A stretch of 64,000 bases of DNA from Candidatus Calditenuaceae archaeon (GCA_025058055.1 JANXEU010000007.1:379-64378), one strand, 5' to 3'; numbered from the stretch's first letter, positions 7,058 to 57,655 are shown. A program made the numbers and translations. The notes: generated from the letters alone by a model not told the origin.

Positions 7058-7285
7058 ATGCTGAATATATCCGTATTTCGCAAGTTTCGTCGAGCCACGA
7101 GGCTCCCAAGGCTACCGCTCGGTCATCAAGCGACAAGTAGATATACGATCGGCTGTAATAATGGAAGGACTAATGACGAGGTTTGGTCTGGTATTGCCGA
7201 ACATAAATTTTGAAGAGGAGGGCCGGTTCTTTGATCTCGGGTCACTCGCGTTCTATCACCCCTACAGAATTGAGGTGCGTTTGTG

Positions 7286-40051: not shown

Positions 40052-40088
40052 CACGAGTGCTTCCAAAGGGCCGGTGATATCCTTCGCT

Positions 40089-40730
40089 CTACAACGATCT
40101 CGCCACAAGCTCCGCTACTCGAAGGTCTTCAAGCGTGTTCACGTTGATCGCTAGGCGCGGTTCCTCCACCGTCACGAAGAAGGGATCCGAGAGCACCTCA
40201 CCGACCGGTACAGCTCCATACCTTATCATCCTGATACCTGTGGGGAAATAATGCTTGCCTTCATGGCTGAAACGTGTTACACTTCTGAGCGGAACTCCCA
40301 CCGACTTGGCGAGATGCTCGCTGACAACAACCACCACGTAGTTCCTGTCGGCCAAGTCGCCTGCGCTGTGACGCACCAGCAAACCATCGATCACCTGTGG
40401 AACGAGAAACGGGACGTCCGCGGAGAAGGTCACGTAGAGACCCGGCCCCAGCTTCTCGAGAGCCGCCTTGAGGTCTTCATAGTATCCGAGCCCTGCAGCC
40501 ACCAAGACGTCGTAGCCTACCTGCCGAAGGAAACTCGTCGTCTTGGGTGTGTTCGTGCTGGTGACGCATATTAGGCCCTTGAGCCCTCTCACTCCAATCA
40601 AACGGTCTAGAACGTGTTCGATCATCATCTTGCCAGCCAACTCCATCAGCGGCTTCTCGGTCGCGGTGCCCATCCTCGTCCCCTTGCCGCCGGCCATGAG
40701 AAGGCCAATGTGCGTCGGAGAGGGGTACAT
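40089..40730 (-). CDS. cobY: CobY-like GTP:adenosylcobinamide-phosphate guanylyltransferase / MobA-like NTP-transferase
   Basis: IGLLMAGGKGTRMGTATEKPLMELAGKMMIEHV...ICVTSTNTPKTTSFL...GLGYYEDL closely parallels archaeal CobY (ALIMAGGKGTRMG..EKPLIKL...ATSPNTPKT...GKGYIEDL). Confidence 0.65.
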   Translation of the reverse strand: MYPSPTHIGLLMAGGKGTRMGTATEKPLMELAGKMMIEHVLDRLIGVRGLKGLICVTSTNTPKTTSFLRQVGYDVLVAAGLGYYEDLKAALEKLGPGLYVTFSADVPFLVPQVIDGLLVRHSAGDLADRNYVVVVVSEHLAKSVGVPLRSVTRFSHEGKHYFPTGIRMIRYGAVPVGEVLSDPFFVTVEEPRLAINVNTLEDLRVAELVARSL

Positions 40731-40843: not shown

Positions 40844-41425
40844 ATGGCGCAGGAGTATCCTGAACCAAAGATCGAGATCCAGAACGTCGTGGCCTCTGTG
40901 ACGCTGAACCAGAGACTGGACCTTCAGTCGATTCAGAACGCCTTTCCTCAAGTGGACTATAAGCCAGCCCAGTTCCCAGGTCTAGTGTTCAGGCTTGAGA
41001 GGCCGAAGACCGCGACGCTGATCTTCAGCAGCGGCAAGATGGTCTGCACAGGCGCGAAGAGCGAGGAGGAGTCTAAGAGGGCCGTGAAGAGGGTGGTGAG
41101 GCTGTTGAAGGAGAAGGGTTTCTTGGTGAGCGAGGACGCGATCATCGAGGTCCAGAACATCGTCGCCTCCATCGACCTCTTCGGTCGGATCAACCTCGAG
41201 AGGGCCGCGCAGGTCCTGGAGACCGTGATGTACGAGCCCGAGCAATTCCCAGGCCTCATCTACAGGATGTCTGAACCGAAGGTCGTGATCTTGATGTTCG
41301 CTAGCGGCAAGCTCGTCTGCACGGGCGCCAAGACAGAGGCCGAGGTCCACGAGGCGGTGATGAGGCTCTCGGAGGAGTTAAGAAGGAAGGGACTGATCAC
41401 ATACGTCACCCGCGTGAACAAGTAG
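40844..41425 (+). CDS. tbp: TATA-box binding protein
   Basis: 193 aa with two direct repeats (IQNVVASVTLNQRLDLQSI.../IQNIVASIDLFGRINLERA...) and a PGLVFRL/PGLIYRM pair. Confidence 0.95.
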   Translation: MAQEYPEPKIEIQNVVASVTLNQRLDLQSIQNAFPQVDYKPAQFPGLVFRLERPKTATLIFSSGKMVCTGAKSEEESKRAVKRVVRLLKEKGFLVSEDAIIEVQNIVASIDLFGRINLERAAQVLETVMYEPEQFPGLIYRMSEPKVVILMFASGKLVCTGAKTEAEVHEAVMRLSEELRRKGLITYVTRVNK

Positions 41426-42279: not shown

Positions 42280-43086
42280 TTAGCGATTACCGGTATCAAC
42301 GGCAGGCCTCCAATTGATAATCTTCTGTTCTAATAGAGCAACAGTAGTGAACATTGAGAGTCCCAGACTTGCCATGACCAAGCATATGGCGGCCGATAGC
42401 GCAACGTCAACATAGTAAATGCTCGCCAGTAACAGGTAACCTAGACCACCAGTAGAGCCTGCCATTTCGCCGACGACTGAGCCTACCACGGATAGGACCG
42501 ACGCGATCTTGAGTGCTGCGAAGACGTTCGGAAGTGCTGCCCTCAGTCTGACCTCGGTGAAGACCTTTCGCTCGTCGGCGCCTAAGGACTTCAAGAGGTC
42601 GGTTAACTCCTGATCGACGTATTTCAACCCCGAGACGGTCCCAACAGTTACTGGGAAATAAGAGACTAGCGCTGCCATGATGATCTTCGCCCAAACGTCG
42701 TAACCGAGCCAGAAGGTCAGAAGGGGAGCCATCGCGACTAGCGGGACAGCCTTGCTCGTGACGACGATGGGGTAGAGAATTCTCTCTAAGAATCTCGAGT
42801 AATACATCATTACTCCGATCCCGAAGCCTACTCCGGCACCTATCGCAAACCCAGCAACGGACTCGAAGGCAGTCATGCTGAAATGTCTTAAGAGGAACGA
42901 GGGCCCAGTATTGCGGATTGAGGCTGCCAAGTCTGAGACCGCGGGGAGTATCACCCTAGGGATGCTGTTGGTACGCGCGAACAGCTCGACAGCTAGCGTT
43001 AACAGACCTAGAAGCGCAACCGACGGCCACCACTCTTTCATCGTCGTCAAAGTCCCGCTGATCAAACTCCCCTTTGTCCGGGTCAA
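42280..43086 (-). CDS. ABC transporter permease (NitT/TauT/Ssu family)
   Basis: BPD_transp_1 signature region with 6 TM helices. It has a 4-nt overlap with the ATPase gene. Confidence 0.75.
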   Translation of the reverse strand: MTRTKGSLISGTLTTMKEWWPSVALLGLLTLAVELFARTNSIPRVILPAVSDLAASIRNTGPSFLLRHFSMTAFESVAGFAIGAGVGFGIGVMMYYSRFLERILYPIVVTSKAVPLVAMAPLLTFWLGYDVWAKIIMAALVSYFPVTVGTVSGLKYVDQELTDLLKSLGADERKVFTEVRLRAALPNVFAALKIASVLSVVGSVVGEMAGSTGGLGYLLLASIYYVDVALSAAICLVMASLGLSMFTTVALLEQKIINWRPAVDTGNR

Positions 43087-43868
43087 CTCGCCATCATCAA
43101 CCTCGGAATCCTGAGAGCCTTCCGAACGCTGATGACGTGTTCGTAGTACCGCTCGCTCTCAAGTAATCTAGGATCGCGAGCCGGACCCAAATCCACGCGA
43201 ACCTCGGTCACCTTTTGCCCGGGTCTCGCTGAAAGAACGACCACTCGATCAGAGAACAGAACCGCTTCGTACACGTTGTGAGTTATTAAAAGCGCCGTTA
43301 TGTGGGTCGGTTCACATAGCCTCAGCATGTCGAAGTTCAACATCTCTCGGTTCATCTCGTCGAGGGCTGCAAAAGGCTCGTCTAGAAGTAGAACTCTTGG
43401 AGACTGTATCATCGCTCGAGCTAAAGCGCAACGTTGTTGCATCCCAATCGAGAGCTCGTTGGGGTAACTGTGCTCGAAGCCTCCCAGCCCTATCGCTCTG
43501 AGTAAATTTACCGCTTTTCGCTTGACGCGGTCGTCGGTCCTGCCCCTGATCCGGAGAGGAAGCAGAACGTTCTCCAACACGCTCCTCCACGGCAAGAGAG
43601 TCGGTTTCTGAAAGACGACACCTATCTCTCCACGTCTTCTGGGAAGATCTGGCTCCTCTCCGTCTATCAACACTCTACCGCTAGTAGGCTTCAAGAGGCC
43701 TGCAGCGACTTTGAGCAGCGTGGTCTTCCCACAGCCCGAGGGCCCCAGCAACGCAACTTTCTCGCCTGCTTCAACGTGGATGGAAATGGGGCCGAGCGCG
43801 TCAACGAAGTTCCCGTTCTTCGATCTATAACGTACTGTCAGCTCGTCCACCGATATTTCTGCACCCAT
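43083..43868 (-). CDS. ABC transporter ATP-binding protein (NitT/TauT/Ssu family)
   Basis: Walker A GPSGCGKTT, signature LSIGMQQR, Walker B LLLLDEP. Confidence 0.8.
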   Translation of the reverse strand: MGAEISVDELTVRYRSKNGNFVDALGPISIHVEAGEKVALLGPSGCGKTTLLKVAAGLLKPTSGRVLIDGEEPDLPRRRGEIGVVFQKPTLLPWRSVLENVLLPLRIRGRTDDRVKRKAVNLLRAIGLGGFEHSYPNELSIGMQQRCALARAMIQSPRVLLLDEPFAALDEMNREMLNFDMLRLCEPTHITALLITHNVYEAVLFSDRVVVLSARPGQKVTEVRVDLGPARDPRLLESERYYEHVISVRKALRIPRLMMAS

Positions 43869-43872
43869 TTGC

Positions 43873-45258
43873 TCAGACCCCCAGCTTTCCTGGGTTCATG
43901 ATGCCGTTGGGGTCCACCCTTCGCTTGAAGTCCATCATGGCCTGCAGTTTCTCTGGAAAGAGGGCACCCAGCCTATCGTTTACGAGGTGCGAATGCAAGT
44001 CAAACTTGTAGCCGACTCCAGCGAACCTCTTCCTCAACGCCGCAAGCGTTTCGGCATCACCTTCCACAAAGAGCCCGAAGTGCGCGTACGGAGCACCTCT
44101 TATCCAGAAGAGGTTCACTTCGATTAAGGGGGCCCACTCCTCGTGCGCGGAGACCTCTTCAACAACGTCCCAAACTCTGTTATGGTGATGATAAAAGACT
44201 AAGTAAAGTAAATGTCTGTGAGGATCTCGTTCTTTTATGTGCCTGATTATGTATGGTGTCTGTGGAAGGCCGAACACCCCTGATAGTATTCTGTCGATGG
44301 AGACCCGATCCGTCACCTTAACACGGTCGATGCTTCCGCTACAACGTTCCACGTAACTCTTGAAGGTCGCAGCTAAGTGCCTATTTGTCGGGTAGGCGGC
44401 CATAACGTACCACCCCTCTCTAGCCCTGCTTGATCTGGTGAGGTCTTCCATCAACCTGCCATAACCCGAGTTTCTCACCGTTAGGTGCCAGAACTGAACT
44501 CTGTCTCGAATTAAGAGGTCAATGAACTCTGCCACTGAGCTCAGTTCACGAAAGTAACCCTCTGCGAGGACGTGATCCCATAAAGGTCGTAGCATCAGAC
44601 CCACCTCTACGACCACACCAACGGTTCCCATGCTGTGCGTGACTGTCTCGACTTCGTCCGACTGAAGTTCCAGCACCTCGCCCTTAGGTGTAACCAGCCT
44701 CAAGGAGGATACGTTGTCCCAGATAAGTCCGTACTCATATGACCCGATACCTCTACTGCCACCCACAACGAATCCACCGACTGTGGCCAGAGGATAGCTG
44801 GTGGGGTAGACTCTGAGGTCTAGGCCCCTAGCACGAACGTGCTGCATTAGCGTTCCAAACCTACATCCGCCCTCCACCCGAACCGTCGAATCATCGATCC
44901 TTCCAACTCCGTTCATCAATCTCATGTCCATCAGTATCCCTCCTCTGATAGGAAGGACGCCTCCCACGTTGTTGCCTGTCCCCCCGCCTTTCGGTACGAC
45001 CGGGATGCCGTGTGAGTCGGCAAAGCTCAACAACCATATCACTTCCTCCAAGCATCGAGGAAAAACCACCACGTCTGCTACGGCAGAGCCGATGAGCTCA
45101 GAAAAAGCCGGAGATATCCAGGCCCATTCGGTTGAGAGTTTCCTCCTGACCCACTCTTCTCGGTAGGTCCGACCCCTGAACTTCTTCTCGATTTCGCTCA
45201 AAAGGTCTTCATCCACAACAACCCTCTCGTGCCCCTCACAGCTATTTGGCAGAGACAT
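43873..45258 (-). CDS. FAD-linked oxidase (PCMH-type FAD-binding domain; GlcD/D-lactate dehydrogenase-like)
   Basis: 461 aa. FAD_binding_4 pattern (VVVFPRCLEEVIWLLSFADSHGIPVVPKGGGTGNNVGG) and C-terminal ...MDFKRRVDPNGIMNPGKL typical of FAD-linked oxidases. Confidence 0.7.
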   Translation of the reverse strand: MSLPNSCEGHERVVVDEDLLSEIEKKFRGRTYREEWVRRKLSTEWAWISPAFSELIGSAVADVVVFPRCLEEVIWLLSFADSHGIPVVPKGGGTGNNVGGVLPIRGGILMDMRLMNGVGRIDDSTVRVEGGCRFGTLMQHVRARGLDLRVYPTSYPLATVGGFVVGGSRGIGSYEYGLIWDNVSSLRLVTPKGEVLELQSDEVETVTHSMGTVGVVVEVGLMLRPLWDHVLAEGYFRELSSVAEFIDLLIRDRVQFWHLTVRNSGYGRLMEDLTRSSRAREGWYVMAAYPTNRHLAATFKSYVERCSGSIDRVKVTDRVSIDRILSGVFGLPQTPYIIRHIKERDPHRHLLYLVFYHHHNRVWDVVEEVSAHEEWAPLIEVNLFWIRGAPYAHFGLFVEGDAETLAALRKRFAGVGYKFDLHSHLVNDRLGALFPEKLQAMMDFKRRVDPNGIMNPGKLGV

Positions 45259-46246
45259 CCATTACGACCTCCTCGGCCCTCACCTCTCTGGACAGCTTGC
45301 CGCCCTCAACTAAGAGCCTGCTAAGACCGATCAGAGGTTCGCGCTCGATCACTCCCACTTTAGCAGGATCCCTCGCGCCCATTAGCTCAAGCCCTATCGA
45401 GAACCTCTCAAGGAGAACATCGCGGTCTGTAGGAGGGTTGTAATCGCGGTAACTCATCGCTATGTCCACGGCCTGCTCTCTATTCGAGTAGGCCCAAGCT
45501 ATCCCCTTTCTAACCGCGTTCAGGAAACGCCTTACGACGTCGGCGTTCGCGTTCAGGTATTCCTCGTTGCCGAAGATGACCAGCGAAGGAAAGTTGAGCC
45601 CCAGATCACCGAAACGAATGAACTCCACGTCTATCCCCACTTTCCTGAACGAGGCCAGATCGGTGACCCAACCGACGGCCGCGTCGACTCTTCCTGACGC
45701 CAGAGGAGTTACCACATCGAAACCGATGTTCACTTTGTTCACCGAATCTGTCCTCAGCCCTTCCCTTTTGAGCAGCAAGTCGAACTGCAGGTCCTGTGTC
45801 GACCCAATCAGGGCTCCGACGGTCTTTCCTTGAAGGTCTGCCACAGATCGCGCTCTCGATGCCTTCAGCACGAATATTCCAGCGGGGTTCTCCTTGAAGA
45901 CCTGAAAGACGACCTTGAGCTTAGCCCCTTTGTCTATGGCTGAGAGGACCACGTCCAAAGTCGCGAGGCCGAGGTCGGCCTTCCCGGATGTGACCAGCTC
46001 AACGGCGTACGGGCTGTTCTTTCCGGGTACGATCTCTAACGCGATGCCTTCGTCCCTGAAGAAGCCTCTGCTCAACGCCGCGAAGTAGGGTACGTGGTGC
46101 CCGTCGAGAGCCCCGTAGTTGAGGACGAACCTGACGTGCCTCATTTCAGCAGGTTTGCCGTCTGACGACGGGTTGGAGAGGAACGCTGCCGTCGCGACGA
46201 TCGCGACCGCCATCAAAGCTAGCAGTAAGACTATTTTGGACCTCAC
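45242..46246 (-). CDS. ABC substrate-binding protein (NMT1/THI5 / SsuA-TauA-like), membrane-anchored
   Basis: The N-terminal TM/signal (MRSKIVLLLALMAVAIVATAAF) is followed by an NMT1-like fold (FVLNYGALDGHHVPYFAALSRGFF). It overlaps the oxidase start by 17 nt. Confidence 0.65.
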   Translation of the reverse strand: MRSKIVLLLALMAVAIVATAAFLSNPSSDGKPAEMRHVRFVLNYGALDGHHVPYFAALSRGFFRDEGIALEIVPGKNSPYAVELVTSGKADLGLATLDVVLSAIDKGAKLKVVFQVFKENPAGIFVLKASRARSVADLQGKTVGALIGSTQDLQFDLLLKREGLRTDSVNKVNIGFDVVTPLASGRVDAAVGWVTDLASFRKVGIDVEFIRFGDLGLNFPSLVIFGNEEYLNANADVVRRFLNAVRKGIAWAYSNREQAVDIAMSYRDYNPPTDRDVLLERFSIGLELMGARDPAKVGVIEREPLIGLSRLLVEGGKLSREVRAEEVVMDVSAK

Positions 46247-46579: not shown

Positions 46580-46646
46580 GAAATAGGTATTTTATCAGGT
46601 AACATCGAACCGAATTGACGACCTGTTGGTGGCTAAACAGAGGACG

Positions 46647-48542
46647 ATGAGGGACGTTCCCTGGGGGACGGGCCCGGTGCCTCTGGAGGAGAGGGAAGAA
46701 CGCGACTGGTGGAGGAAGCTCTTCAACGACGTGTATCTGCTAACAGACGGCGATGTCGTCTGCAACAGGCGGCTGACCGAGTACGAGGTCGATATCGTAA
46801 TCGATCTCCTCGATTTGGACAAGGATGACCCGCTGCTGGATCTCTGCTGTGGAAACGGTAGACACTCCCTCGAGCTTGCGAGGCGGGGCTTCAGGAAGGT
46901 TTACGGGCTTGACTACTCGCAAACCCTCCTAAACGTCGCGAGGGACTCTGCACTCAGCGAGGGCCTTCTCGTCGACTTCCGGCAAGGAGACGCGAGGCGC
47001 CTGCCTTACGAGGACAACGCTTTCAACGCCGTCATAATGATGGGAAACAGCTTCGGTTACTTCAGGGATGAGGCTGACAACATTAGAGTGCTGAGGGAGG
47101 TTCACCGAGTCCTACGACCCTACGGCAGGCTGCTGATGGACTTGACTGACGCAGAGTGCTTCCGAAATACTTTCGAACCTGTAAGAGCTGAGGTTCACGA
47201 CCACACGCTCGTCGTTAGGTTGAGGGAGCTCTCGAGGGACCGTAGTAGGTTCTTCACACGAGAGATCGTCATCTCGGGTGATGCGATCGTAGCGGATCAG
47301 GTCTACGGCATCAGGCTTTACACGTTCGACGAGCTGAAGCGACTCTTGAGAGAGGCGGGATTCGTGAACGTCGCTCTTAGGACCAAACTCACCTACAATC
47401 CAGTCGATAAGGACCCCGGAATGATGGGCTCGAGGATGGTCGTTACAGCTCTGGCATCTAAAGAACCGAAGAACACAGGGAACAAACCGCTGATAGTGGT
47501 CCTTCTGGGCGATCCGAGAAGGCCGCATCCCGTTAAACCGGGATTCAGGTTCGACGAGGACGACGTTCACGCGGTAAACGAACTCAGGTCTGCTCTGCAC
47601 GGCATCGGAGACTACACGTACGCGTTCCTGGACGACCACTCAAAGATGCTACACTTCTTGATGGAGAAGAGGAACTCGATTCACATGGTCCTTAACCTCT
47701 GCGACGACGGCTTCTTCAACGATCCCTACAAGGAGGGACACGTGGCTGCGGTTCTGGACGTATTAGACGTGAGGTACACCGGAGCCGGACCCGCATGTCT
47801 CAGCATTTGCTACGACAAGTCCGCGGTGAAGGCCGTTGCCCGATCGATGGGCATTCCCGTTCCATATCACTTGGTGGTCAACAGCGTTAGGGAACTGCGT
47901 TCCGTGTCGACCCGACTTCTGCCGGCAGTAGTGAAGCCGAACTACGGGGACAACAGCTGGGGCATAACCAGTGAGAGCCTCGTTAAGACCACGGAAGAGC
48001 TCGTGAACGCCTTCAGGTCCCTCCGAGAGGAGTGGAAATACTCGGGCCCAGTGATCGTTGAGAAGTTCATAGAAGGTGACGACCTGACGGTCTCGATGAT
48101 CGGAAACCCACCGAACCTAATCTTCTTACCGGTCCTCAAGGAGGATTACTCCCAACTCCCCGCCGGGCTACCGCGAATTTTGACGTACGACGCGAAGTGG
48201 AACCCCAACTCTCCCTACTGGCGAGTCAATTCCGTTCCGGCACACCTGGACGACGGCCTCCGGGCTAAGCTACTCAAGTGGAGCGAGAAGCTCTTCGTGA
48301 GGTTGGGATGCAGAGACTACGCGCGGTTTGACTGGAGGCTTGGTAGCGACGGAGTTCCGAGGTTGCTCGAGGCCAACCCTAACCCCGGTTGGGTGTGGGA
48401 CGGCCACCTCCGCAAGGCTTGCAAGCACGCTGGGTGGACCTATGAGAGGATGTTCAAAGAGATCATCAGAGCTGCGGAGAAGAGATACGCGTTAAAGAAC
48501 CAAAACGGCAACGAGTTCAAGCATCTGTACCCCTCAACTTGA
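46647..48542 (+). CDS. Fusion protein: class I SAM-dependent methyltransferase (N-terminal) + D-alanine-D-alanine-ligase-like ATP-grasp domain (C-terminal)
   Basis: N-terminal half: motif I VIDLLDLDKDDPLLDLCCGNGRHSLELARRG plus the post-I acidic and motif II/III pattern. C-terminal ~330 aa: Ddl-like pre-ATP-grasp (LIVVLLGDPR...DYTYAFLDD) and ATP-grasp (LPAVVKPNYGDNSWGI..., VIVEKFIEGDDLTVSMIGN, RFDWRLGSDGVPRLLEANPNPG). The ORF track starts at TTG 46626. Confidence 0.7.
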   Translation: MRDVPWGTGPVPLEEREERDWWRKLFNDVYLLTDGDVVCNRRLTEYEVDIVIDLLDLDKDDPLLDLCCGNGRHSLELARRGFRKVYGLDYSQTLLNVARDSALSEGLLVDFRQGDARRLPYEDNAFNAVIMMGNSFGYFRDEADNIRVLREVHRVLRPYGRLLMDLTDAECFRNTFEPVRAEVHDHTLVVRLRELSRDRSRFFTREIVISGDAIVADQVYGIRLYTFDELKRLLREAGFVNVALRTKLTYNPVDKDPGMMGSRMVVTALASKEPKNTGNKPLIVVLLGDPRRPHPVKPGFRFDEDDVHAVNELRSALHGIGDYTYAFLDDHSKMLHFLMEKRNSIHMVLNLCDDGFFNDPYKEGHVAAVLDVLDVRYTGAGPACLSICYDKSAVKAVARSMGIPVPYHLVVNSVRELRSVSTRLLPAVVKPNYGDNSWGITSESLVKTTEELVNAFRSLREEWKYSGPVIVEKFIEGDDLTVSMIGNPPNLIFLPVLKEDYSQLPAGLPRILTYDAKWNPNSPYWRVNSVPAHLDDGLRAKLLKWSEKLFVRLGCRDYARFDWRLGSDGVPRLLEANPNPGWVWDGHLRKACKHAGWTYERMFKEIIRAAEKRYALKNQNGNEFKHLYPST

Positions 48543-49099: not shown

Positions 49100-49723
49100 C
49101 TAATGATTAAAGATCCAAGAAGCGAAAACCCAAGCGCCAATTCCCACGAGTATAAGGCTCCATATCCTATCGAAGTCAATCCAAAGCCTCTTCAGTGACC
49201 CTATACCCAGCACGAGGTAAACGGAGGCCGCAAAAGACGCCATTACTAAGACGGATGCGGTTGAGTGAAGCGCGATCATGTACAGACCTCCTGTCAAGCT
49301 CCCGGTCGCTCCTCCGTAAATGGAACAGTAGAGCGCGAAGAACGGCATCACCGATGGTATCGACCCATGAACTACACCTAACGCTGCGCCCAATGGGATC
49401 ATCTCAAGCCTTGAGCGCTTCAGCCCGAAGTACCAGTGTGTCCTTCTGAGAAGCCTGTAGGCTCCGAAGGCGATCAACGCCACAGCCGACGCCGGTGCGG
49501 TGACAGAGTTCAGCCACGATGTCGCGATGGAGATGGGCAGGAGCGAGAGCATCGCCAGAGTATGCCCAGCACCCAACAGTCCGACGGTAATGAACACCTC
49601 TCCTCTGCTCTTGTTCATCATACCTCGATGGACGCTGAGCAACCATCCAGACGTAGGGTTAGCACCGTGAATTAGCCCCATGTAGATGACCGTTGAGGCT
49701 ATGACTTCTTCAGGGAGGACCAT
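49100..49723 (-). CDS. Integral membrane protein (about 6 TM), possible metal/small-solute transporter
   Basis: Hydrophobic throughout with a His/Asn N-terminal motif (IHGANPTSGW). No confident family assignment. Confidence 0.4.
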   Translation of the reverse strand: MVLPEEVIASTVIYMGLIHGANPTSGWLLSVHRGMMNKSRGEVFITVGLLGAGHTLAMLSLLPISIATSWLNSVTAPASAVALIAFGAYRLLRRTHWYFGLKRSRLEMIPLGAALGVVHGSIPSVMPFFALYCSIYGGATGSLTGGLYMIALHSTASVLVMASFAASVYLVLGIGSLKRLWIDFDRIWSLILVGIGAWVFASWIFNH

Positions 49724-49727
49724 GAAC

Positions 49728-51119
49728 TCACGCTGACGGGTAACAGAAACTGTCCGAGCTCGAGTCGCCGCCCTCGAGCCTCACCTGATGGGCCTTCGCT
49801 TGGCCGAAATCAACGAAGAACCTGTCATCGACCGAAAGTTGCCCACCCTCAGAGTTGAGCTTAACCAACCATCCGTAAAGTCCCTCGGGATAGAATATCG
49901 GATCCCACGAGCTGTAAAGCGAGTTGGTCACATACACCCTCCTACCGTCTCTGCTCACCTCTACCATCTGCGGCGCACCGGTAAGTCTCCTTCCTGACGG
50001 ATGATCTGCTCTGTGAACTATTCCACCCAGCTTCGCTATCGACTTGAGCTTGGGCTCGAAGGGGTTGCTTACGTCGTAGCATCTCAGCTCTCCCGTACCC
50101 CAGCAGGAGACGTAGAGGTATCTATCGTCAACTGAGAGAACTATATCGGTCACCAATGGTGGAACGGCTCCGAAGGGCTTCAGGACGCCAGGCAAAAGGT
50201 TCTCTTCTAGCGGAACGGCCTCTATTTCGATCACCTTGCTCACATCCCAGCGGTTATCCTCCTTGTGCCAGAGCCAGATGCTGGAGCTTAGGTCCTTAAC
50301 GCTGATGACGACGTTCGCGAACCCCATCAACTTGGTGGGCTCGTGAAAAGGTCTCAACTCGAGCACCATCCGCTGCTCCTTCCCAAGCTCGATCGATTTT
50401 AGATGCTTCCTTTTCCTGAGGTCCCAGAAGTGAATCCTGTTACCGTAAAGGCCTTTGACAAGCGCGTCTAAGTCGAGCCCGTTCTCGAAGTACTTGGGGA
50501 CGGTCCACTCACTGGATATCATGACCTCTTCTGTGAGGTGCCACCAGAAATCGTAAGCCAAGTACTGGTCTCCCCGGTCGATCTCGAACCTTCCAAGTGG
50601 CTCGAGGGTCCTGTGGTCGAGCAACAAAACGCCTCCCGGACCTTCGTCACCAGTGCCGCCTAGACCGCTGAGGTAGACCGCATCCGGTCCACAATGTACG
50701 GTGTGAATTCTCGAGTATCCGCTGACCTCTCTTATCCTCTCACCTCTGATCTTCTTGACGAGCGTAGGCCTACGCGGATCTGGTTTCGTGTCAATCACGT
50801 AGACGTTCGAGGACCTCAACCCAGGCACTATCAGATACCGTCTCTCTAAAGTGGGGTCGCCATAGGGGCACAGCATGGAGCTACAGGCGTTCCATCCGAA
50901 GTGGTGAAGCTCGTCCCCGATCTCGGGAAGCTCTACCCTGTGTAAGATCTGGCTGTAGGTATCAGATTTCGGATCAACGTCTACGACGGCCAGGAAGTCC
51001 GGCTTCTGCAGACCTGTGCCAGTGTAAAGCCCGGCGACATACGCTATCGTCTCAGGAGGGCCTCTAACCGCCTCTCTCGGCGTCGGGTAAAAAGTCTGGT
51101 CGGGTTTGAGCCTGCTCAC
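49728..51119 (-). CDS. Selenium-binding protein family (SBP56 / methanethiol oxidase-like)
   Basis: 463 aa. FYPTPREAVRGPPETIAYVAGLYTGTG...DFLAVVDVDPKSDTYSQILHRVELPEIGDELHHFGWNACSS closely matches the SBP56 N-terminus. The start is GTG. Confidence 0.85.
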   Translation of the reverse strand: MSRLKPDQTFYPTPREAVRGPPETIAYVAGLYTGTGLQKPDFLAVVDVDPKSDTYSQILHRVELPEIGDELHHFGWNACSSMLCPYGDPTLERRYLIVPGLRSSNVYVIDTKPDPRRPTLVKKIRGERIREVSGYSRIHTVHCGPDAVYLSGLGGTGDEGPGGVLLLDHRTLEPLGRFEIDRGDQYLAYDFWWHLTEEVMISSEWTVPKYFENGLDLDALVKGLYGNRIHFWDLRKRKHLKSIELGKEQRMVLELRPFHEPTKLMGFANVVISVKDLSSSIWLWHKEDNRWDVSKVIEIEAVPLEENLLPGVLKPFGAVPPLVTDIVLSVDDRYLYVSCWGTGELRCYDVSNPFEPKLKSIAKLGGIVHRADHPSGRRLTGAPQMVEVSRDGRRVYVTNSLYSSWDPIFYPEGLYGWLVKLNSEGGQLSVDDRFFVDFGQAKAHQVRLEGGDSSSDSFCYPSA

Positions 51120-51446: not shown

Positions 51447-51719
51447 ATGAGCACTTCGGACGTGACCGTGTTGGTAGGGAAGAAGCCAGCGATGAGCTAC
51501 GTTCTAGCGTGTCTGATAGCGTTGCAACAGGGCCAGAACATCACGTTGAAGGCTAGGGGTAAGGCGATCAGCAGGGCAGTGGACGTAGTTCAGATACTTC
51601 GAAACAGGTTCCTGAGGGACCTGAGGGTGCAGCAGATAAACTTGGGGACCGAGACGCTGAAGGGGCAGGACGGCCGCGACGTCAACGTCAGCACCATCGA
51701 GATCAAAATAGCCCACTGA
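51447..51719 (+). CDS. albA: Alba (Sso10b) chromatin/RNA-binding protein
   Basis: VTVLVGKKPAMSYVLACLIALQQGQNITLKARGKAISRAVDVVQILRNRF...VSTIEIKI is the Alba fold signature. The ORF track starts at ATG 51402; Met 51447 gives the canonical length. Confidence 0.85.
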   Translation: MSTSDVTVLVGKKPAMSYVLACLIALQQGQNITLKARGKAISRAVDVVQILRNRFLRDLRVQQINLGTETLKGQDGRDVNVSTIEIKIAH

Positions 51720-51765
51720 ACTAAAGTCGACAGGTGCGGAGCGATGAGCTGGGGGACCAGGGGAG

Positions 51766-52263
51766 TTGAGACTTCCGGTTTGCGAGTTCGACGTCAGGAC
51801 CGGAACCCTCTGCCCGAAATGCGAGCCCCTCATCTCGTCCGGTGCGTTATCACCGGAAGACCTACGAGCGATGAGGGAGCTTCTGGAGGCAGAGCTTCAG
51901 TTTCCCCAGCTCAAGACAGCTGAATACGTAAAAACCATACGAGCAAGCGGAATTTTCTTTGTCTTGCTTCGATATTACGCCGACCTGAGGCAGTTCAAGT
52001 TCAGACTTGAGCGACACCTTTCTCAGAGGCTAGGCGCTCAGGTGAACGTCATCGAGTACGCTGGGAGCGTGAACGCGTTGCTGGAGCAGCTCTTGAAGCC
52101 TGCAAGGGTGACCGGCATCAGCAGGGTGTGGCTTCCTGACGGAACCGAGCAACTCCTCGTGAAGGTGGACAAGATGTCCTCCGTTACCATCGGAATAGAC
52201 AGAGTTACCGATGTGCTCAAGGCCCTCCGGGGCATTGAGGTAGTAATCGAAGAGGCCGGGTGA
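51766..52263 (+). CDS. Putative RNA-binding protein: N-terminal Cys4 zinc ribbon + NusA-like KH region
   Basis: CEFDVRTGTLCPKCE zinc ribbon. The C-terminal VNVIEYAGSVNALLEQLLKPARVTGISRV...IGIDRV resembles archaeal NusA-like KH repeats. Tentative. Confidence 0.4.
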   Translation: MRLPVCEFDVRTGTLCPKCEPLISSGALSPEDLRAMRELLEAELQFPQLKTAEYVKTIRASGIFFVLLRYYADLRQFKFRLERHLSQRLGAQVNVIEYAGSVNALLEQLLKPARVTGISRVWLPDGTEQLLVKVDKMSSVTIGIDRVTDVLKALRGIEVVIEEAG

Positions 52264-52264
52264 C

Positions 52265-53161
52265 TCAGGTCAGTAGCCCTATGTAACGAGAGGCGCTGTC
52301 GGGTAACACGGTAACTACGAGGCCCTCTTCTAAATCCTGTGCCACGGAGATGGCCGCATAGACATTCGCACCTGCCGACGGCCCCGTGAGAAGTCCGAAC
52401 CTCCTCGCTAGGACGCGGGCCGTGTTATACGCATCCTCAGTCCTGACGAACACTCGAACGTCGGCAAAGCTATCGTCGTAAATCTTGGGAACGATCGCGT
52501 TGTACATGTTCTTCAGCCCCTCGATGCCGTGAAGCGGTTCGGCCGGCTGGACCTCCACCAACCTCACGTCTCTGATGACCTCCTTCAACCTCTTCCCCGC
52601 ACCCATAAGCGTTCCCGACGTGCCGACCCCCGCGACGAAGTGCGTTACCTTCCCTAATGTCTGCTCTATGATCTCCGGCCCGGTAGTCTCGTAGTGAGCC
52701 CTCAGGTTGGATGGGTTGTCGTATTGATTCGCGTAAAAGTATCGCTTTGGGTCGGATTCGTAGATCTCCCTCGCCTTCCTGATGGCGCCGTCGATGCCCT
52801 CGAGCGCGTCTGAGACGATGATCTCTGAGCCGAGATACCTCAAAAGGGCGAGCTTTTGCTGGCTGATGCTGCCCGGTACTACTAGGGTGACACCTATTCC
52901 AAGGGAGGCTCCCACCAACGCGAGCCCCAACCCCATGTTCCCCGACGTAGCATCGAGTATCCGTTTCTCTTGGGTCAGCGCACCGCTCCTCAATGCGTCC
53001 ATCACTATGTATAGGGCAGGCCTGTCCTTGACCGAGCCGCCAGGGTTCATGAACTCGGCTTTAGCCATGAGCCTCACCCCTCTCCGGTCTCCCAGTAGCC
53101 GCGTCAAATCGATCATAGGCGTCCTGCCGATAGCGCTCAGCACGCTTCCGAGCTCCATCAC
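52265..53161 (-). CDS. cysK: Cysteine synthase / O-acetylserine sulfhydrylase family (PLP-dependent, fold type II)
   Basis: GRTPMIDL, PGGSVKDRPA (PLP-lysine motif) and GVGTSGTLMG glycine loop. Confidence 0.8.
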   Translation of the reverse strand: MMELGSVLSAIGRTPMIDLTRLLGDRRGVRLMAKAEFMNPGGSVKDRPALYIVMDALRSGALTQEKRILDATSGNMGLGLALVGASLGIGVTLVVPGSISQQKLALLRYLGSEIIVSDALEGIDGAIRKAREIYESDPKRYFYANQYDNPSNLRAHYETTGPEIIEQTLGKVTHFVAGVGTSGTLMGAGKRLKEVIRDVRLVEVQPAEPLHGIEGLKNMYNAIVPKIYDDSFADVRVFVRTEDAYNTARVLARRFGLLTGPSAGANVYAAISVAQDLEEGLVVTVLPDSASRYIGLLT

Positions 53162-53243
53162 CGAAACTTGTATTGTCCTGTTATAATTTCAACGTAAGCA
53201 GTAACACCAGAACCAACAAATCCAGAAGCCATCTCCTTCCGGT

Positions 53244-54815
53244 GTGGGCAATTGGGATACAAATGACGCACTAGAGTATCACGAGAACACCAAGCACAGC
53301 TACGTATCCGTTAGGCTGCGAGGGCGAGGTCTGGACTGGGAGAACATGCCTTACCCCTTCAAAGTTTACCCTGATGCACCTAGGGTCGAGCTTCCCAGTT
53401 CCTTTCCCTCACCAACCGCCACCCTCTTCGAGGCGCTGCGCCGTCCTGAATCGCGAACGCTCCGAGAGATCGAGCTGCCGCTGATCGCGGAGCTCCTCTT
53501 CTATAGTGCCGGCATCACCAGAATTAAGGACTACGGATGGGGAAGGGTCTACTTCAGGGCGGCAGCTGCCACAGGCAACCTCCACGAGACTGAGCTCTAC
53601 TTAGTCGTGGGTGGTGGAGGAGATCTGGAACCCGGAGTTTACCACTTCGATCCTTGTGAGTTCTGCCTGTCGCAGATCAGAAGAGGTGATTACAGGCAGC
53701 GCTTGGCTAGGTCTACGCGCTCGGCCGAAGTGCTGGAATCCGGCCTGACGGTCGTTCTCAGCTCCGTGGCGTGGAGGAACGCTTGGAAGTACGGCCCGAG
53801 GTCCTACAGACACTGGTTCTGGGACGGTGGCGCTCTATGCGCGAACCTGCTGGCCGTCTCGAGGGCCGAGGGTCTCGAGCCAGAGGTCCTGATGGGGTTC
53901 GTAGACGAGGAGGTCAACGCTCTGATCGGCGCCGAGCAGCCTAGGGAGGCGGCGATAGCAGTCGTGGCCCTGAAGGGGCTCGAGTCGAGCCACCCGGGCT
54001 CGAGCCCGTCCACCGACCCAATTCGGTACCGGCCGATGCCCTACTCGAGGCGCGAGGTCCAGTATAGAGAGATCGCTGAGGCCCACGCATCCTCCTGCCT
54101 CCGCGACGCCGACGAGGTGGCGAGGTGGAGGGACGGTGCCGGGCGGCTGAGGCCGACCAGCGACCTTGAGCCCCCTGCGGCCAGCTGGCTGTGGGCCGAC
54201 CTGCGCCCCCTACCGCTCGGCGAAGCGATCCTGTTACGGGGCTCGGCGAGGAGGTTCACCCAGACACCAATACGCGGCGAGGTGCTACGCGCCGTGACGT
54301 GGGCGATGTGCGCCCCGATCGAGGCTGACTTCGTCCCGAGAGGACTGACGACGCTGCTGGAGCGGTTCGCGATCGTGAACGCGGTCGATGGACTCGATCC
54401 AGGCTCCTACCTTCATGAGCGCGGGAGCCTCGAGCTCCGCCTCCTTAAGCCTGGGAACTTCAGGAGGGTAGCGGGGTACCTCTGCTTGGAGCAGGGCCTG
54501 GGGAGCGACGCCTCGGTCGTCTTCTTCCTGATGGCGAGGCTCGGGGAGGTCCTCGGACACATGGGCAACAGGGGCTACAGGGCGGTCCAGTTCGAGGCGG
54601 GGGTCAGGGTCGGACTGGCGTACCTAGTCGCGTACTCGCTGGGGATCGGCGCGACCGGGCTGACGTTCTACGACGACGTCCGGGAGTTCTTCGCGCCTGC
54701 CTCGGACGGCATGGAGAACATGATGGTGGTGGCGCTTGGGAACCCGTCCTACAGGTCCAGGCCCGGCAGGATTCACGTCCGGGAGTGCAGGCACCCGGCC
54801 TTTAGGAGGTCGTGA
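53244..54815 (+). CDS. Tandem-domain SagB-type dehydrogenase (nitroreductase superfamily; McbC/SagB-like)
   Basis: The N-terminal EYHENTKHSY is the SagB-domain hallmark. A second nitroreductase-like domain begins around LLRGSARRFTQTPI. This gene, especially its 3' half, is visibly more GC- and CpG-rich than the surrounding DNA. Confidence 0.7.
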   Translation: MGNWDTNDALEYHENTKHSYVSVRLRGRGLDWENMPYPFKVYPDAPRVELPSSFPSPTATLFEALRRPESRTLREIELPLIAELLFYSAGITRIKDYGWGRVYFRAAAATGNLHETELYLVVGGGGDLEPGVYHFDPCEFCLSQIRRGDYRQRLARSTRSAEVLESGLTVVLSSVAWRNAWKYGPRSYRHWFWDGGALCANLLAVSRAEGLEPEVLMGFVDEEVNALIGAEQPREAAIAVVALKGLESSHPGSSPSTDPIRYRPMPYSRREVQYREIAEAHASSCLRDADEVARWRDGAGRLRPTSDLEPPAASWLWADLRPLPLGEAILLRGSARRFTQTPIRGEVLRAVTWAMCAPIEADFVPRGLTTLLERFAIVNAVDGLDPGSYLHERGSLELRLLKPGNFRRVAGYLCLEQGLGSDASVVFFLMARLGEVLGHMGNRGYRAVQFEAGVRVGLAYLVAYSLGIGATGLTFYDDVREFFAPASDGMENMMVVALGNPSYRSRPGRIHVRECRHPAFRRS

Positions 54816-54858
54816 GGTCGGCCAACCCCTTTACTGTTATATGGGATGATTCAGCACT

Positions 54859-55437
54859 ATGATTATGGTGATGGACTCCAAGGTGAGGGCGATCACGAGG
54901 AGCGATGTGGTCACGATCGATGAGGACTCGACGGTCGAGGAGGCCGCGAAGCTGATGGGGTCAAAAGGGATCGGTGCGCTCGCGGTGACGAGGAATGGGA
55001 GGATCGTGGGGATCATCACGGAGAGGGATGTCCTCAAGCGCGTGGTCGCTGAGGGGAGGGACCCTAAGCTCACGAAGGTGAGGGACGTGATGACCTCGCC
55101 GCCGATAACCGTTGGCCCCGACACGACCATCAGGGAGGCGATAGACCTGATGAACAGGAGGAGGATCAGGAGGCTCTTGGTCGAGGAGGAGGGCAGGATC
55201 GTGGGGATCTTCACGCAGAGGGACATTCTCGCCCTTACGAGGATCTGCCTCTACTGCGTCAAGGAGGTCTCCCTGCTCGCCCCGACCGATGACGGCGAAC
55301 CTTTGATCGTCTGCGGTTGCGGAGCCATCTATCACAAGTCCTGCGCGACGACGGTCGTCTACTGCCTTGACTGCTCAACTAGATTGATCGAGGTGATTCG
55401 GGCACCAGCTCCGGAAGACACCTTGGCTGGCGACTGA
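54859..55437 (+). CDS. CBS-domain pair protein with C-terminal Cys-rich zinc-ribbon-like module
   Basis: Two CBS motifs (VVTIDEDSTVEEAAKLM...ALAVT, PITVGPDTTIREAIDLM...RLLV) are followed by CLYCVKE...CGCGAIYHKSCATTVVYCLDCS. Confidence 0.7.
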   Translation: MIMVMDSKVRAITRSDVVTIDEDSTVEEAAKLMGSKGIGALAVTRNGRIVGIITERDVLKRVVAEGRDPKLTKVRDVMTSPPITVGPDTTIREAIDLMNRRRIRRLLVEEEGRIVGIFTQRDILALTRICLYCVKEVSLLAPTDDGEPLIVCGCGAIYHKSCATTVVYCLDCSTRLIEVIRAPAPEDTLAGD

Positions 55438-55524
55438 GCACTCTTAGGTCTCACCCGCCGATCGCTAGAGGGTCTCACGAAGACTCAGTTGATATACGGG
55501 AAGCAGAAAAGAGCTCTAGGAGCG

Positions 55525-57084
55525 ATGACGTCTCAGGTGAGGTTCGAGGAGATCAGCCCAGCTGACTTCTTCTACAGGAATAGAGATCTGGCTGGGTTCA
55601 CAAATCCGGCGAGGTCGCTTTACATGTGCATTCGAGAGCTCGTGGAGAACAGCCTCGACGCGACCGAGATCATCAGGGTTCCACCGAACGTCTGGGTCCA
55701 GCTGGAACCGGTCAACGGCGAGAGCGAACGAATCCTCAAGTTGACGGTCAAGGACAACGGGGTAGGAGTCGATGGTGACAAGATACCGAAGGCCTTCGGG
55801 ACGGTCCTTTACGGCAGCAAGTACGGCTTCAAGCAGTCGAGGGGGACTTTCGGCGTCGGAGGCACGATGGCCTTGCTTTACGGCCAGATCACGACGAACC
55901 AGGCTTTCACGATTGCCTCAAGCACCGGGGGCAAGGAGATCCACGAGTACAAGATGATGATAGACATCGTAGACAACAAGCCGAAGGTCTTAGAACACAA
56001 AGTCCTCCCGAACCAGAGGCGGTGGAGGGGGACGATTGTCAAGGTAACGCTGGAGGGTGATTACGCCGGCAGCAGGTCCAAGATCCTTGAGTACTTCACG
56101 ATGAGCGCAATCGTCAACGCGAACGCCAACATCGTCTTCGTGGATCCGAGGTACCGACTCTACGTCTTCAGGAGAGTGATAGAGGATGTCCCCGAACCTC
56201 CAAAGGAGGGGAGACCTCACCCGCTGGGCGTGGACGTCGAGACTGTGAACAGACTGCTCGCCAACACCAAGTCGAGGGACGTTCGGTCATTCCTGGTCGC
56301 GGAGTTCCAGAGGATGGGCCCGAAGACCGCGGAGGAGGTGCTCAAGCTAGCGGGAATAGATCGCGACAGGAAGGTCAAGGACGTCTCCCACGACGAGGTC
56401 ACGAAACTCGTTGAGGCGTTCAAGAGCTACGGCAAGTTCAGGGCACCCGAGACCAGCACGATCAGTCCCGTCGGGGTCAAGTTCATCGAGGCCGGGCTCA
56501 GGGCGATCTATAGGCCCGACTTCCTGCACGTCGTTCAGAGACCCCCCTCAAGCTACTCCGGAATACCCTTCGTCGTGGAGGCGGCCATAGCATACGGTGG
56601 CTCAATCGAGCCCTCGGAGGAGATCCACCTCCTGAGGTTTGCGAACAAGATACCTCTGCTCTACGACGAGAAGGCCGACGTTTCTTGGAAGGTGATATCG
56701 GAGAGGATCGACTGGAGCTCTTACAAGGTCCAGAAGGGGATGCCTGTTTTGGTGCTGACAAGCGTCTGCTCGCCGAAGGTGCCCTACAAGACGGTCGGGA
56801 AGGAGGCGATCTCGGACCGGCCCGAGATCGAGAGGGAGCTCACGATCGCGATCAGGGAGTGCGCCAGGAACTTGAGACTCTACCTCAGCAGGCTAGAGAA
56901 GGGCGAGGCAGCCAAGAGGAGGCTTAGCGTCTACGCGAGGTACCTCCCGATGATCGCGAAGAACTCAGCCTACGTTGCGGGCACGGATCCACCGGACGTG
57001 ATGCCCTTGCTCAGATCAATAGGCGTCACGGCCCGGATGGTTGAGGAAGAGACGAGGGCTCTCGCCGAAGAGCTAGCTTCCTGA
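55525..57084 (+). CDS. top6B: DNA topoisomerase VI subunit B
   Basis: Bergerat ATPase fold motifs (YMCIRELVENSLDA, KDNGVGV, GTFGVGG), an H2TH region and the transducer domain. The ORF track starts at ATG 55489; Met 55525 (MTSQVRFEEISPADFF) fits the family N-terminus. Confidence 0.9.
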   Translation: MTSQVRFEEISPADFFYRNRDLAGFTNPARSLYMCIRELVENSLDATEIIRVPPNVWVQLEPVNGESERILKLTVKDNGVGVDGDKIPKAFGTVLYGSKYGFKQSRGTFGVGGTMALLYGQITTNQAFTIASSTGGKEIHEYKMMIDIVDNKPKVLEHKVLPNQRRWRGTIVKVTLEGDYAGSRSKILEYFTMSAIVNANANIVFVDPRYRLYVFRRVIEDVPEPPKEGRPHPLGVDVETVNRLLANTKSRDVRSFLVAEFQRMGPKTAEEVLKLAGIDRDRKVKDVSHDEVTKLVEAFKSYGKFRAPETSTISPVGVKFIEAGLRAIYRPDFLHVVQRPPSSYSGIPFVVEAAIAYGGSIEPSEEIHLLRFANKIPLLYDEKADVSWKVISERIDWSSYKVQKGMPVLVLTSVCSPKVPYKTVGKEAISDRPEIERELTIAIRECARNLRLYLSRLEKGEAAKRRLSVYARYLPMIAKNSAYVAGTDPPDVMPLLRSIGVTARMVEEETRALAEELAS

Positions 57085-57655
57085 TCAGGAGTAGAGCGGC
57101 ATAGGCTAACACGCCTGCGAGCGTGACCCATCCTATGAGGTCCACGTAGTTGAGGATCAGGTCGACCATGCCCTCGCCGTAGAACGAGAGGAAGAGGCTC
57201 ACGGGGATGAACCGGGCTGCACGCCCTATCGCAGCTGCAACGATGAACCCTTTAACGTCCCTCATCCCTAGAGCCCCGGCGCCGATGGTGAACACCTTGA
57301 AGGGGAGTGGTGTGAACGCGGCCAGTCCGACCGCGAGAGCACCGTAGCGATCGAAGTATCGCTCGAGAGCGGAGATGTTTCGCTTCCCCGCGACCCTGAG
57401 CAGCAGCGGCCTCCCGAACCTCCTTCCTAAATAGTAGCCTACCAAACCACCTGCGACCGAGGAGACGACCGTTATCGCGCCGTAGAGCGGGCCGTTGGCA
57501 GGGTCTAGCAGCACCATCGGTACCAGAAGCGCATCAGGTGGGACAGGGAAGAATATCGACTCGGTGAAGGAGAGCAGAGCCAGCCCGAAGGGGCCTATGT
57601 GAAGGAGGTGGTTCCGCGCGAACTCTATCATCGCCTCAAGCAGGTCCCTCAGCAA
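57026..57655 (-). CDS. DedA / SNARE-associated (TVP38/TMEM64) family membrane protein
   Basis: The DedA core (GPFGLALLSFTESIFFPVPPDALLVPMVLL...) is followed by a GRRFGRP loop. Its 3' end overlaps the top6B 3' end convergently by ~59 nt. Confidence 0.7.
   Translation of the reverse strand: MLRDLLEAMIEFARNHLLHIGPFGLALLSFTESIFFPVPPDALLVPMVLLDPANGPLYGAITVVSSVAGGLVGYYLGRRFGRPLLLRVAGKRNISALERYFDRYGALAVGLAAFTPLPFKVFTIGAGALGMRDVKGFIVAAAIGRAARFIPVSLFLSFYGEGMVDLILNYVDLIGWVTLAGVLAYAALLLIRKLALRREPSSLPQPSGP

Follow-up and report, generated by a model that had tools for sequence, protein, structure and literature searches.

A GC-rich patch in a Calditenuaceae archaeon as a probable short recombinant tract joining a tandem SagB-domain gene and a CBS-domain gene to sequence from a high-GC sister clade

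Genes and features of the locus

We analysed a 64,000-nucleotide stretch of DNA (hereafter called the window) from Candidatus Calditenuaceae archaeon (GCA_025058055.1, JANXEU010000007.1:379-64378), of which positions 52,265 to 55,437 are the subject here. The Calditenuaceae belong to the Caldarchaeales, formerly known as 'Aigarchaeota' (NCBI records). A first-pass annotation had described this region as a patch rich in guanine and cytosine (GC), in which a tandem SagB-type dehydrogenase gene and a gene for a CBS/zinc-ribbon protein lie next to a divergent cysteine synthase gene. The gene placement and domain calls are correct (the SagB domain, for example, matches TIGR03605 with 127 bits), and most of the patch appears to be a recombinant tract with its own ancestry. 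The features are as follows:

52,265-53,161, minus strand: cysteine-synthase-family pyridoxal phosphate (PLP) enzyme, CysK-like, 298 amino acids (PALP, E 2e-63; SVKDR motif)
53,162-53,243: intergenic region of 82 bp from which the CysK-like and SagB-like genes diverge (GC content about 0.44-0.53)
53,244-54,815, plus strand: tandem SagB-domain protein, 523 amino acids (matches to TIGR03605 and to the Protein Data Bank entry 3EO7)
53,769-55,257: probable imported recombinant tract, 1,489 bp, GC content 0.649 (maximum-likelihood placement from mismatch density)
54,859-55,437, plus strand: CBS-pair/Zn-ribbon protein, 192 amino acids (Pfam CBS match and alignment to Ta0289)

The CysK-like gene is transcribed divergently from the SagB-like gene, and the latter is followed on the same strand by the CBS gene after a 43-bp spacer; the gaps around these two genes measure 82, 43 and 51 bp. 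Downstream of the CBS gene lies the gene for topoisomerase VI subunit B, and upstream of the locus are genes for Alba and a NusA-like KH protein; this gene content marks the source of the window as an archaeon. Proteins that are 100% identical have been deposited at NCBI from metagenome-assembled genomes (MAGs) of Calditenuaceae, where the 523-residue protein is named 'SagB/ThcOx family dehydrogenase'. The tract covers SagB codons ~176-523, the 43-bp spacer and CBS codons 1-~133.

Base composition of the patch

Measurement bears out the GC-rich patch, which contains the GC maximum of the window. The highest value for a 1-kb segment is 0.676 (at 53,801-54,800, against a mean of 0.551 with a standard deviation of 0.031), and all 25 highest-ranking 1-kb segments fall within the patch. 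For the refined tract (53,831-55,288) we obtained a GC content of 0.651, corresponding to z = 4.1 in comparison to non-overlapping segments of the same size, whose maximum is 0.613. The GC profile is thus not uniform. The 3' half of the SagB-like gene is indeed GC-rich, as the first-pass annotation had stated, but the same claim holds only weakly for the CBS gene, which at 0.60 is little richer than its downstream flank (0.58-0.61). The strongest excess is confined to SagB codons ~176-523. Within this gene the composition changes in a step: the GC content at third codon positions (GC3) is 0.65 for codons 1-170 and 0.86 for codons 171-523, with an overall GC content of 0.67 from codon ~176 onwards. 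The first and second codon positions are also raised in this segment because the encoded protein is rich in Gly, Ala, Arg and Pro (together 38%) and nearly free of Lys (0.8%).

CpG enrichment, which had been noted along with the GC content, was rejected: the observed/expected ratio is about 1.0 in the patch as well as beyond it, and CpG density simply follows GC content. A comparison of tetranucleotides gives a divided outcome, as the raw distance of the tract is the largest among 597 windows whereas the GC-normalised usage is ordinary. Taken together, the ordinary CpG ratio and the ordinary normalised tetranucleotide usage suggest that the source is a close relative and not an exotic organism.

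Apart from the tract, the window shows a broad GC gradient, with values of 0.57-0.62 in the last ~12 kb (52-64 kb) and 0.49-0.55 in much of the first half (1-35 kb).

Ancestry of the tract and its junctions

To describe the ancestry of the patch we compared the window to three relatives over 9.4 kb of shared synteny; these came from a GTDB scan, in which the genome of the window itself is not a representative. These are L091 (identical to L001; Caldarchaeales DT_Bin_10, locus GC content 0.655), L092 (SKYBB_hs_bin131, 63% GC) and L097 (also L010; SKYB46, a member of the Calditenuaceae with 59% GC). A Logan contig, L009, has the same gene order and 65.5% GC. All genomes compared are metagenome-assembled.

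The closest homologue of the SagB-like protein is found in L001/L091, at 85% identity and in the same gene order. However, this resemblance is not spread evenly over the gene: identity at third codon positions between the window and L001 amounts to 0.36-0.58 up to codon ~165 and to 0.76-0.94 thereafter, with the step at about codon 170. Throughout the 9.4 kb, L097 is at least as near to the window as L091 and L092 are, with the interval of ~53.78-55.11 kb as the one exception. Here the window is 0.83-0.93 identical to L091 and L092 against 0.59-0.77 to L097, and its identity to the former two matches the identity that they have with each other.

Quartet sites supporting each of the three possible groupings were counted in the tract and in both flanks:

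5' flank: 150 sites group the window with L097 (and L091 with L092), 13 the window with L091 (L092 with L097), 15 the window with L092 (L091 with L097)
Tract: 16 sites group the window with L097, 33 with L091, 16 with L092
3' flank: 425 sites group the window with L097, 33 with L091, 36 with L092

Pooled over both flanks, 575 sites join the window to L097, against 97 for the two alternatives together. Distances change accordingly: between the window and L091 the p-distance falls from 0.24-0.25 in the flanks to 0.092 in the tract, and the mismatch density is 0.089 in the tract against 0.225 outside. A model with two breakpoints improves on the null with a log-likelihood ratio of 97, where the maximum over 100 permutations was 11.3. 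Of the informative sites, 88-96% place the window with the high-GC clade in the tract, compared with 31-67% outside.

Both junctions can be bounded by informative sites, at 53,766-53,831 (5') and 55,237-55,291 (3'). The 5' junction lies within the most conserved block of the family in the SagB-like gene (...WKYGPRSYRHWFWDG... / ...AWKYGPRSYRHWFWDG...), and the 3' junction coincides with the point where the CBS pair ends and the ribbon's first CxxC follows. Both are located in stretches that are conserved among all lineages, with exact matches of 17-36 nucleotides. The GC content of the tract (0.65) equals that of the loci in the donor clade (0.63-0.66) and exceeds that of the window (0.55). 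From the high-GC relatives that were sampled, the tract is 9-13% diverged (87-91% identity). Even the variable SagB linker (amino acids 250-320), which lies inside the tract, is 85-92% identical to L091 and 51-61% identical to L010. Among the changes in the tract that are private to the window, 42 run from GC to AT and 14 from AT to GC; for the sister branches the ratio is 63:46 (pooled p = 0.04). This bias is in the direction expected after residence in a genome of lower GC content.

The data show the donor-like GC content and support the import and the two hybrid genes: the SagB-like gene would consist of resident codons 1-~175 and imported codons ~176-523, and the CBS gene of imported codons 1-~133 followed by a resident remainder. 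Regarding its origin, we consider it probable (roughly 80%, a figure that also covers the reading of the enzyme given below) that the patch arose by homologous recombination of the gene-conversion type, as an allelic replacement of ~1.5 kb. A fragment from the sister clade with 63-66% GC (L091, L092 and L009, with L091 nearest) would have replaced the resident alleles of a Calditenuaceae archaeon with ~55% GC, whose closest sampled relative is L097/L010 (59% GC). The exchange would have run between two short conserved stretches, one in each gene, and the tract would have kept the composition of the donor, chiefly as a GC3 of ~0.86. About 4% lineage-specific changes, 3:1 towards A/T, would then have accumulated after the transfer, and the outcome would be two in-frame hybrid genes, SagB-like and CBS. 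The horizontal acquisition that the first-pass annotation had considered applies to a ~1.5-kb stretch of alleles and not to the genes themselves, which are no new arrivals: SagB, CysK-like, Alba and NusA-KH stand in an order conserved across the Calditenuaceae. The CysK-like gene is the resident allele and lies outside the tract; it is 86% identical to L097, and 84% and 82% identical to L091 and L092, respectively.

A further stretch of unusual identity was seen in the DedA/VTT-domain gene of L092 (equivalent to window coordinates 57,190-57,640). Over ~450 bp the identity between L091 and L092 drops from ~0.90 to 0.78, and the GC content of L092 falls to 0.55. Possibly another short tract of recombination lies here, in this case in a sister genome.

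The tandem SagB-domain protein

The 523-residue protein begins with ...ALEYHENTKHS and matches the SagB-domain model TIGR03605 at 127 bits (cut-off 78) in two stretches, while a Pfam Nitroreductase match (PF00881) covers amino acids 332-479. With phmmer, the structure 3EO7 is matched over amino acids 9-256 and 370-501 (E 3e-41). An AlphaFold2 model was obtained with a predicted local distance difference test score of 92 and a predicted template modelling (TM) score of 0.94; aligned with Foldseek, this model agrees with 3EO7 over the full length (TM 0.72/0.77 over 531 columns), and the single halves match ThcOx, 3HJ9, BmdC and McbC. The family to which it belongs is large: at E<=1e-5 it numbers over 5,500 proteins, each of ~520 amino acids, mostly archaeal (Caldarchaeales, Bathyarchaeia and Nitrososphaerales) with some from bacteria.

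Conservation of motifs was derived from an alignment of 53 homologues, down to 41% identity:

53,277-53,297, plus strand: YHENTKH motif, amino acids 12-18 (T16, K17 and H18 invariant; aligns with YHERTKY of 3EO7)
53,784-53,828, plus strand: W181-K182-Y183...Y188-R-H-W-F-W-D-G196, invariant Lys-Tyr block of the N domain (holds the 5' crossover)
54,237-54,257, plus strand: RGSARRF, amino acids 332-338, nitroreductase-type motif for the phosphate of flavin mononucleotide (FMN) (R332, G333, S334, R336 and F338 invariant)

The invariant residues are divided unequally over the two halves. In the N half we find T16-K17-H18 and W181-K182-Y183-x2-R-x-Y-R-H-x2-W-D-x-G, in the C half R332-G-S-x-R-x-F and R443-G-Y-R. 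The RGSxRxF motif is conserved in the C domain alone, the matching segment of the N domain not being conserved, whereas the Lys-Tyr pair is confined to the N domain, where WKY aligns with the WKY of ThcOx. A BLASTP comparison of the N half with the C half gave only E = 0.046 over 36 amino acids; the internal duplication, as judged from the modelled structure, appears to be ancient and is supported by fold and not by sequence.

In McbC, Lys201 and Tyr202 take the alpha-proton of the substrate while the hydride goes to N5 of FMN, and the FMN phosphate is held by arginines of both subunits (PMC6395948). Monomeric proteins of the nitroreductase fold with a single flavin site are found in other parts of the superfamily (PMC10404671). 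The motifs kept by the two halves complement each other, which suggests that the protein is a fused pseudo-dimer and has a single composite flavin site: one chain of two nitroreductase folds, each contributing a complementary half of one predicted active site. The C domain would supply the RGSxRxF motif for the FMN phosphate, and the N domain would supply R105, a TG loop and the invariant Lys182-Tyr183 pair. By analogy with these enzymes, the protein is most likely a putative FMN-dependent alpha,beta-dehydrogenase/oxidase, with a substrate that is probably not a peptide made by ribosomes and modified after translation (RiPP). It would work alone, with the CysK-like enzyme as merely a syntenic neighbour.

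The nearest structure, Ava_2154 of Anabaena variabilis (3EO7, a 'putative nitroreductase' from the JCSG), shares the chain length of ~510-530 amino acids, the two nitroreductase-fold halves and the N-terminal YHExTK[HY] motif, but at ~25% identity it differs in having R-Y where the clade of the window has an invariant K-Y. The azoline dehydrogenases McbC (6GOS), ThcOx (5LQ4), BmdC (7LY7) and SagB share the FMN nitroreductase fold and the W-K-Y block; the fold matches to them are single-domain, with E values of 1e-8 to 4e-12. In contrast to the window protein, with its fused pseudo-dimer and asymmetric motif retention, these enzymes are homodimers with two symmetric sites. They also have an RRE (RiPP recognition element), E1-like or YcaO protein, fused or as partner, and an adjacent precursor peptide, none of which was found in searches of the window. 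With the 'FDO' subgroup (Acg and TyzC) the likeness consists of one chain, one flavin site and C-C desaturation, the latter two predicted in our case (PMC10404671); however, these proteins belong to another subgroup, are ~340 amino acids long and are often linked to ThiF, and with the Acg homologue 2YMV there is only a weak match in fold (E 2e-4, TM 0.23-0.34).

Neighbouring proteins and gene context

The 192-residue protein contains a CBS pair at amino acids 7-125 (Pfam CBS, E 1e-35, two stretches), followed by a ribbon with seven cysteines (Cys 130, 133, 152, 154, 162, 169 and 172). It aligns to Ta0289 (PDB 1PVM and 2QH1) over amino acids 8-157 and also matches 3GHD, described as a 'CBS domain protein fused to a Zn-ribbon-like domain'. 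Proteins of this type (1PVM, 2QH1, 3GHD) have the same layout of a CBS pair and then a Cys-rich ribbon in ~190 amino acids, though identity to them is low and the window gene is a hybrid of the alleles of two lineages. On the basis of these matches we infer a Ta0289-type CBS/Zn-ribbon protein, a predicted nucleotide sensor.

For the 298-residue protein, with its SVKDR motif holding the PLP lysine at 53,021-53,035, the NCBIfam scores are 306.9 for TIGR01136 (cut-off 344.15), 294.8 for TIGR01138 (394.2) and 266.2 for TIGR01139 (350.95). From these scores it appears to be a member of the cysteine synthase family below the level of the CysK/CysM equivalogs. To call it 'divergent' is fair in both senses, as it scores below the cut-off of 344 with TIGR01136 and is transcribed divergently.

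With respect to gene context, the order Alba, NusA-KH, CysK (-), SagB (+) occurs only in Calditenuaceae (13 of 90 loci; six of the 33 GTDB loci), and a CBS gene following SagB is seen only in the genus-level clade of the window. At ~100 other loci with the same SagB family the neighbours are unrelated. Clustering of neighbouring open reading frames (ORFs) at 87 loci revealed only clade-specific recurrences (a GNAT-like protein and membrane proteins) and no partner of SagB that is conserved across the family. The adjacency of CysK is lineage-specific synteny. Pfam scans of all ORFs of at least 193 amino acids in the 64-kb window gave no YcaO, ThiF/E1 or RRE protein, and among small ORFs at 46-63.5 kb (including the 82-bp intergenic region) none has a Cys/Ser/Thr-rich core, in agreement with the absence of YcaO and a precursor peptide noted in the first-pass annotation. 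Likewise, no YcaO, ThiF or precursor peptide was found around ~120 homologous loci.

Alternative explanations

Given that the window is a MAG contig, it might be argued that the patch is a chimera of the assembly, in which reads of a co-occurring high-GC relative were joined to the contig with 55% GC at shared k-mers. The position of the junctions, in stretches conserved in all lineages with exact matches of 17-36 nucleotides, would suit such an artefact, as would the fact that L010 and the Logan contigs of the window stem from the same run (SRR15826900). On the other hand, an independent assembler (Logan) reproduces both junctions at 100% identity: contig L125 corresponds to window positions 51,677-54,059 and spans the 5' junction, and is present in two samples, while contig L124 corresponds to 54,573-55,548 and spans the 3' junction. 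The same hybrid proteins have moreover been deposited under two NCBI accession series. Since the tract is 9-13% off every sampled high-GC genome, it is no copy of a known co-occurring genome; its specific changes are A/T-biased, and a chimera would need a double switch, in and out, within 1.5 kb that restores both frame and synteny. We therefore regard this explanation as quite unlikely. A scan of JGI metagenomes for independent copies of the population of the window gave a best match of 57% identity and so lends no corroboration, but it supplied 80 loci for context. Less likely still is that no transfer took place and that the pattern results from local constraint, the protein being rich in Gly, Ala, Arg and Pro and poor in Lys, and its codon bias strong. 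The amino acid composition of the segment (38% and 0.8%, as given above) does lift the first and second codon positions, and in other genomes the SagB gene lies 1-3 points above the GC content of its flanks. The gene for TATA-binding protein (TBP; 40,844-41,425, plus strand), used as a negative control, shows that high identity is possible without transfer: its GC3 of 0.84 is unmatched in the neighbourhood and its identity to L001 reaches 0.93, but it was rejected as a second tract, as L001 and L092 are 0.96-0.99 identical there and the topology is unchanged. Constraint is contradicted already by the quartet counts, that is, the topology changes in the tract and the distances do not all shrink in proportion. 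Besides, the excess is mostly at third positions and steps inside the gene (GC3 0.65 to 0.86), the variable linker retains its high identity to L091 and low identity to L010, and the signal runs on through the non-coding spacer into the CBS gene.

The first-pass annotation had also suggested that the neighbouring cysteine synthase and the CBS protein could belong to a module for sulfur transfer or thio-modification. In its fuller form, the CysK-like, SagB-like and CBS proteins would cooperate in thio-modification or azoline oxidation and would have been gained as an island. Some observations are in favour of this: the Lys-Tyr pair known from azoline dehydrogenases is present in the N domain, SagB and CBS lie 43-50 bp apart on the same strand in the genus of the window, and in the archaeon HR01 a 45%-identical CBS/Zn-ribbon gene is found 1.8 kb downstream of the SagB homologue. 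Nonetheless, the searches of the 64-kb window yielded neither YcaO, ThiF/E1 or RRE proteins nor a Cys/Ser/Thr-rich precursor. The adjacency of CysK is limited to one family-level clade, the Calditenuaceae, where Alba and NusA-KH accompany it and from which ~100 other loci differ, and that of CBS to one genus-level clade. By phylogeny the SagB gene falls among archaeal housekeeping homologues whose synteny is conserved, which speaks against the RiPP and module readings. Finally, the boundaries of the tract cut both the SagB and the CBS gene and leave out CysK, and thus no set of genes moved as a unit. A cooperating module is highly improbable on these grounds. Somewhat less improbable, though still unlikely, is an adaptive introgression of a co-adapted pair, as the tract carries exactly the predicted FMN-binding half of SagB and the sensor half of CBS. 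If true, the SagB-like oxidoreductase would be under the control of the CBS/Zn-ribbon protein, and in Calditenuaceae of hot springs enzyme halves would be reshuffled as a matter of routine by kb-scale recombination between lineages ~25% diverged.

The allelic replacement itself, together with the proposed function of the enzyme, has several points against it. The donor genome is unsampled, and the A/T bias of the tract changes is weak (p = 0.04 pooled, 0.17 against L091 alone). The evidence on the junctions consists of assembled contigs from SRR15826900; this run also contains the L010 lineage, all genomes are MAGs, and positions 54,060-54,572 of the tract are outside the contigs of the second assembly. 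For the enzyme, complementary conservation is the ground for placing K182/Y183 at one site with R332/S334/R336. Its function is a prediction: no characterised member of the tandem family was found in the literature searched, and 3EO7 is an unpublished structural-genomics entry.

Relation to recombination in other archaea

Homologous recombination or gene conversion of short tracts between diverged archaeal lineages is known in Sulfolobus and haloarchaea. The tracts described there are likewise contiguous and kb-scale, with a discordant phylogeny, a donor-like composition and crossovers in short conserved stretches. Here the process concerns uncultivated Calditenuaceae at ~25% divergence of the locus and ~10 GC points apart, and both ends of the tract are intragenic. 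Our tract would be a clean new instance of a known process, and its genes were already annotated and belong to known families.

What is gained is that a vague 'GC island' becomes a probable, bounded recombination event between uncultivated thermophilic archaea that differ by ~10 GC points, for which a donor clade, a direction of transfer and the junctions can be given. Few tracts of this kind have been documented in Caldarchaeales, and they bear on species barriers as well as on the quality control of MAGs. Calling of 'islands' based on GC content would here wrongly suggest a foreign gene cluster. For the 3EO7-type family, the presence of the Lys-Tyr pair of azoline dehydrogenases without a RiPP context warns against annotation as a peptide-maturation enzyme, and the hypothesis of one asymmetric site in this family is testable.

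Other observations in the window

Several other regions of the window deserve mention. Relative to L001/L091, two insertions are present. The one at 42,280-46,246 carries an ABC transporter (BPD_transp_1 and ABC_tran), FAD_binding_4 and an NMT1/THI5-like binding protein, and is at least in part common to L097. The other, at 49,100-51,119, encodes a 207-residue membrane protein without a family match and a 463-residue SBP56 protein, similar to selenium-binding proteins and methanethiol oxidases (Pfam E 4e-185). Between them, at 46,626-48,542 on the plus strand, lies a gene for a 638-residue fusion of a class-I S-adenosylmethionine-dependent methyltransferase (amino acids ~65-170) and an ATP-grasp domain of the D-Ala-D-Ala-ligase type (amino acids ~426-614), an unusual architecture that is conserved in L001, L092 and L097.

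On the minus strand at 38,469-40,730, genes for CofD (2-phospho-L-lactate transferase), a 232-residue protein of the nitroreductase family and a MobA-like nucleoside triphosphate transferase stand in a row that resembles a gene set for F420 biosynthesis; L001 has the same. A catabolic neighbourhood extends over 1,274-29,336, with three large subunits of molybdopterin enzymes of the xanthine dehydrogenase family (7,283-9,535; 9,569-11,992; 24,665-27,106), three RraA-like aldolase paralogues, HpaB, LigB, an isochorismatase, amidohydrolases, acyl-CoA ligases and an ABC transporter of the branched-chain amino acid type. Finally, at 57,026-57,084 the convergent 3' ends of the topoisomerase VI subunit B gene (plus strand) and the DedA/VTT gene (minus strand) overlap by 59 bp when the longest ORFs are taken, and the annotation of L001 is the same.

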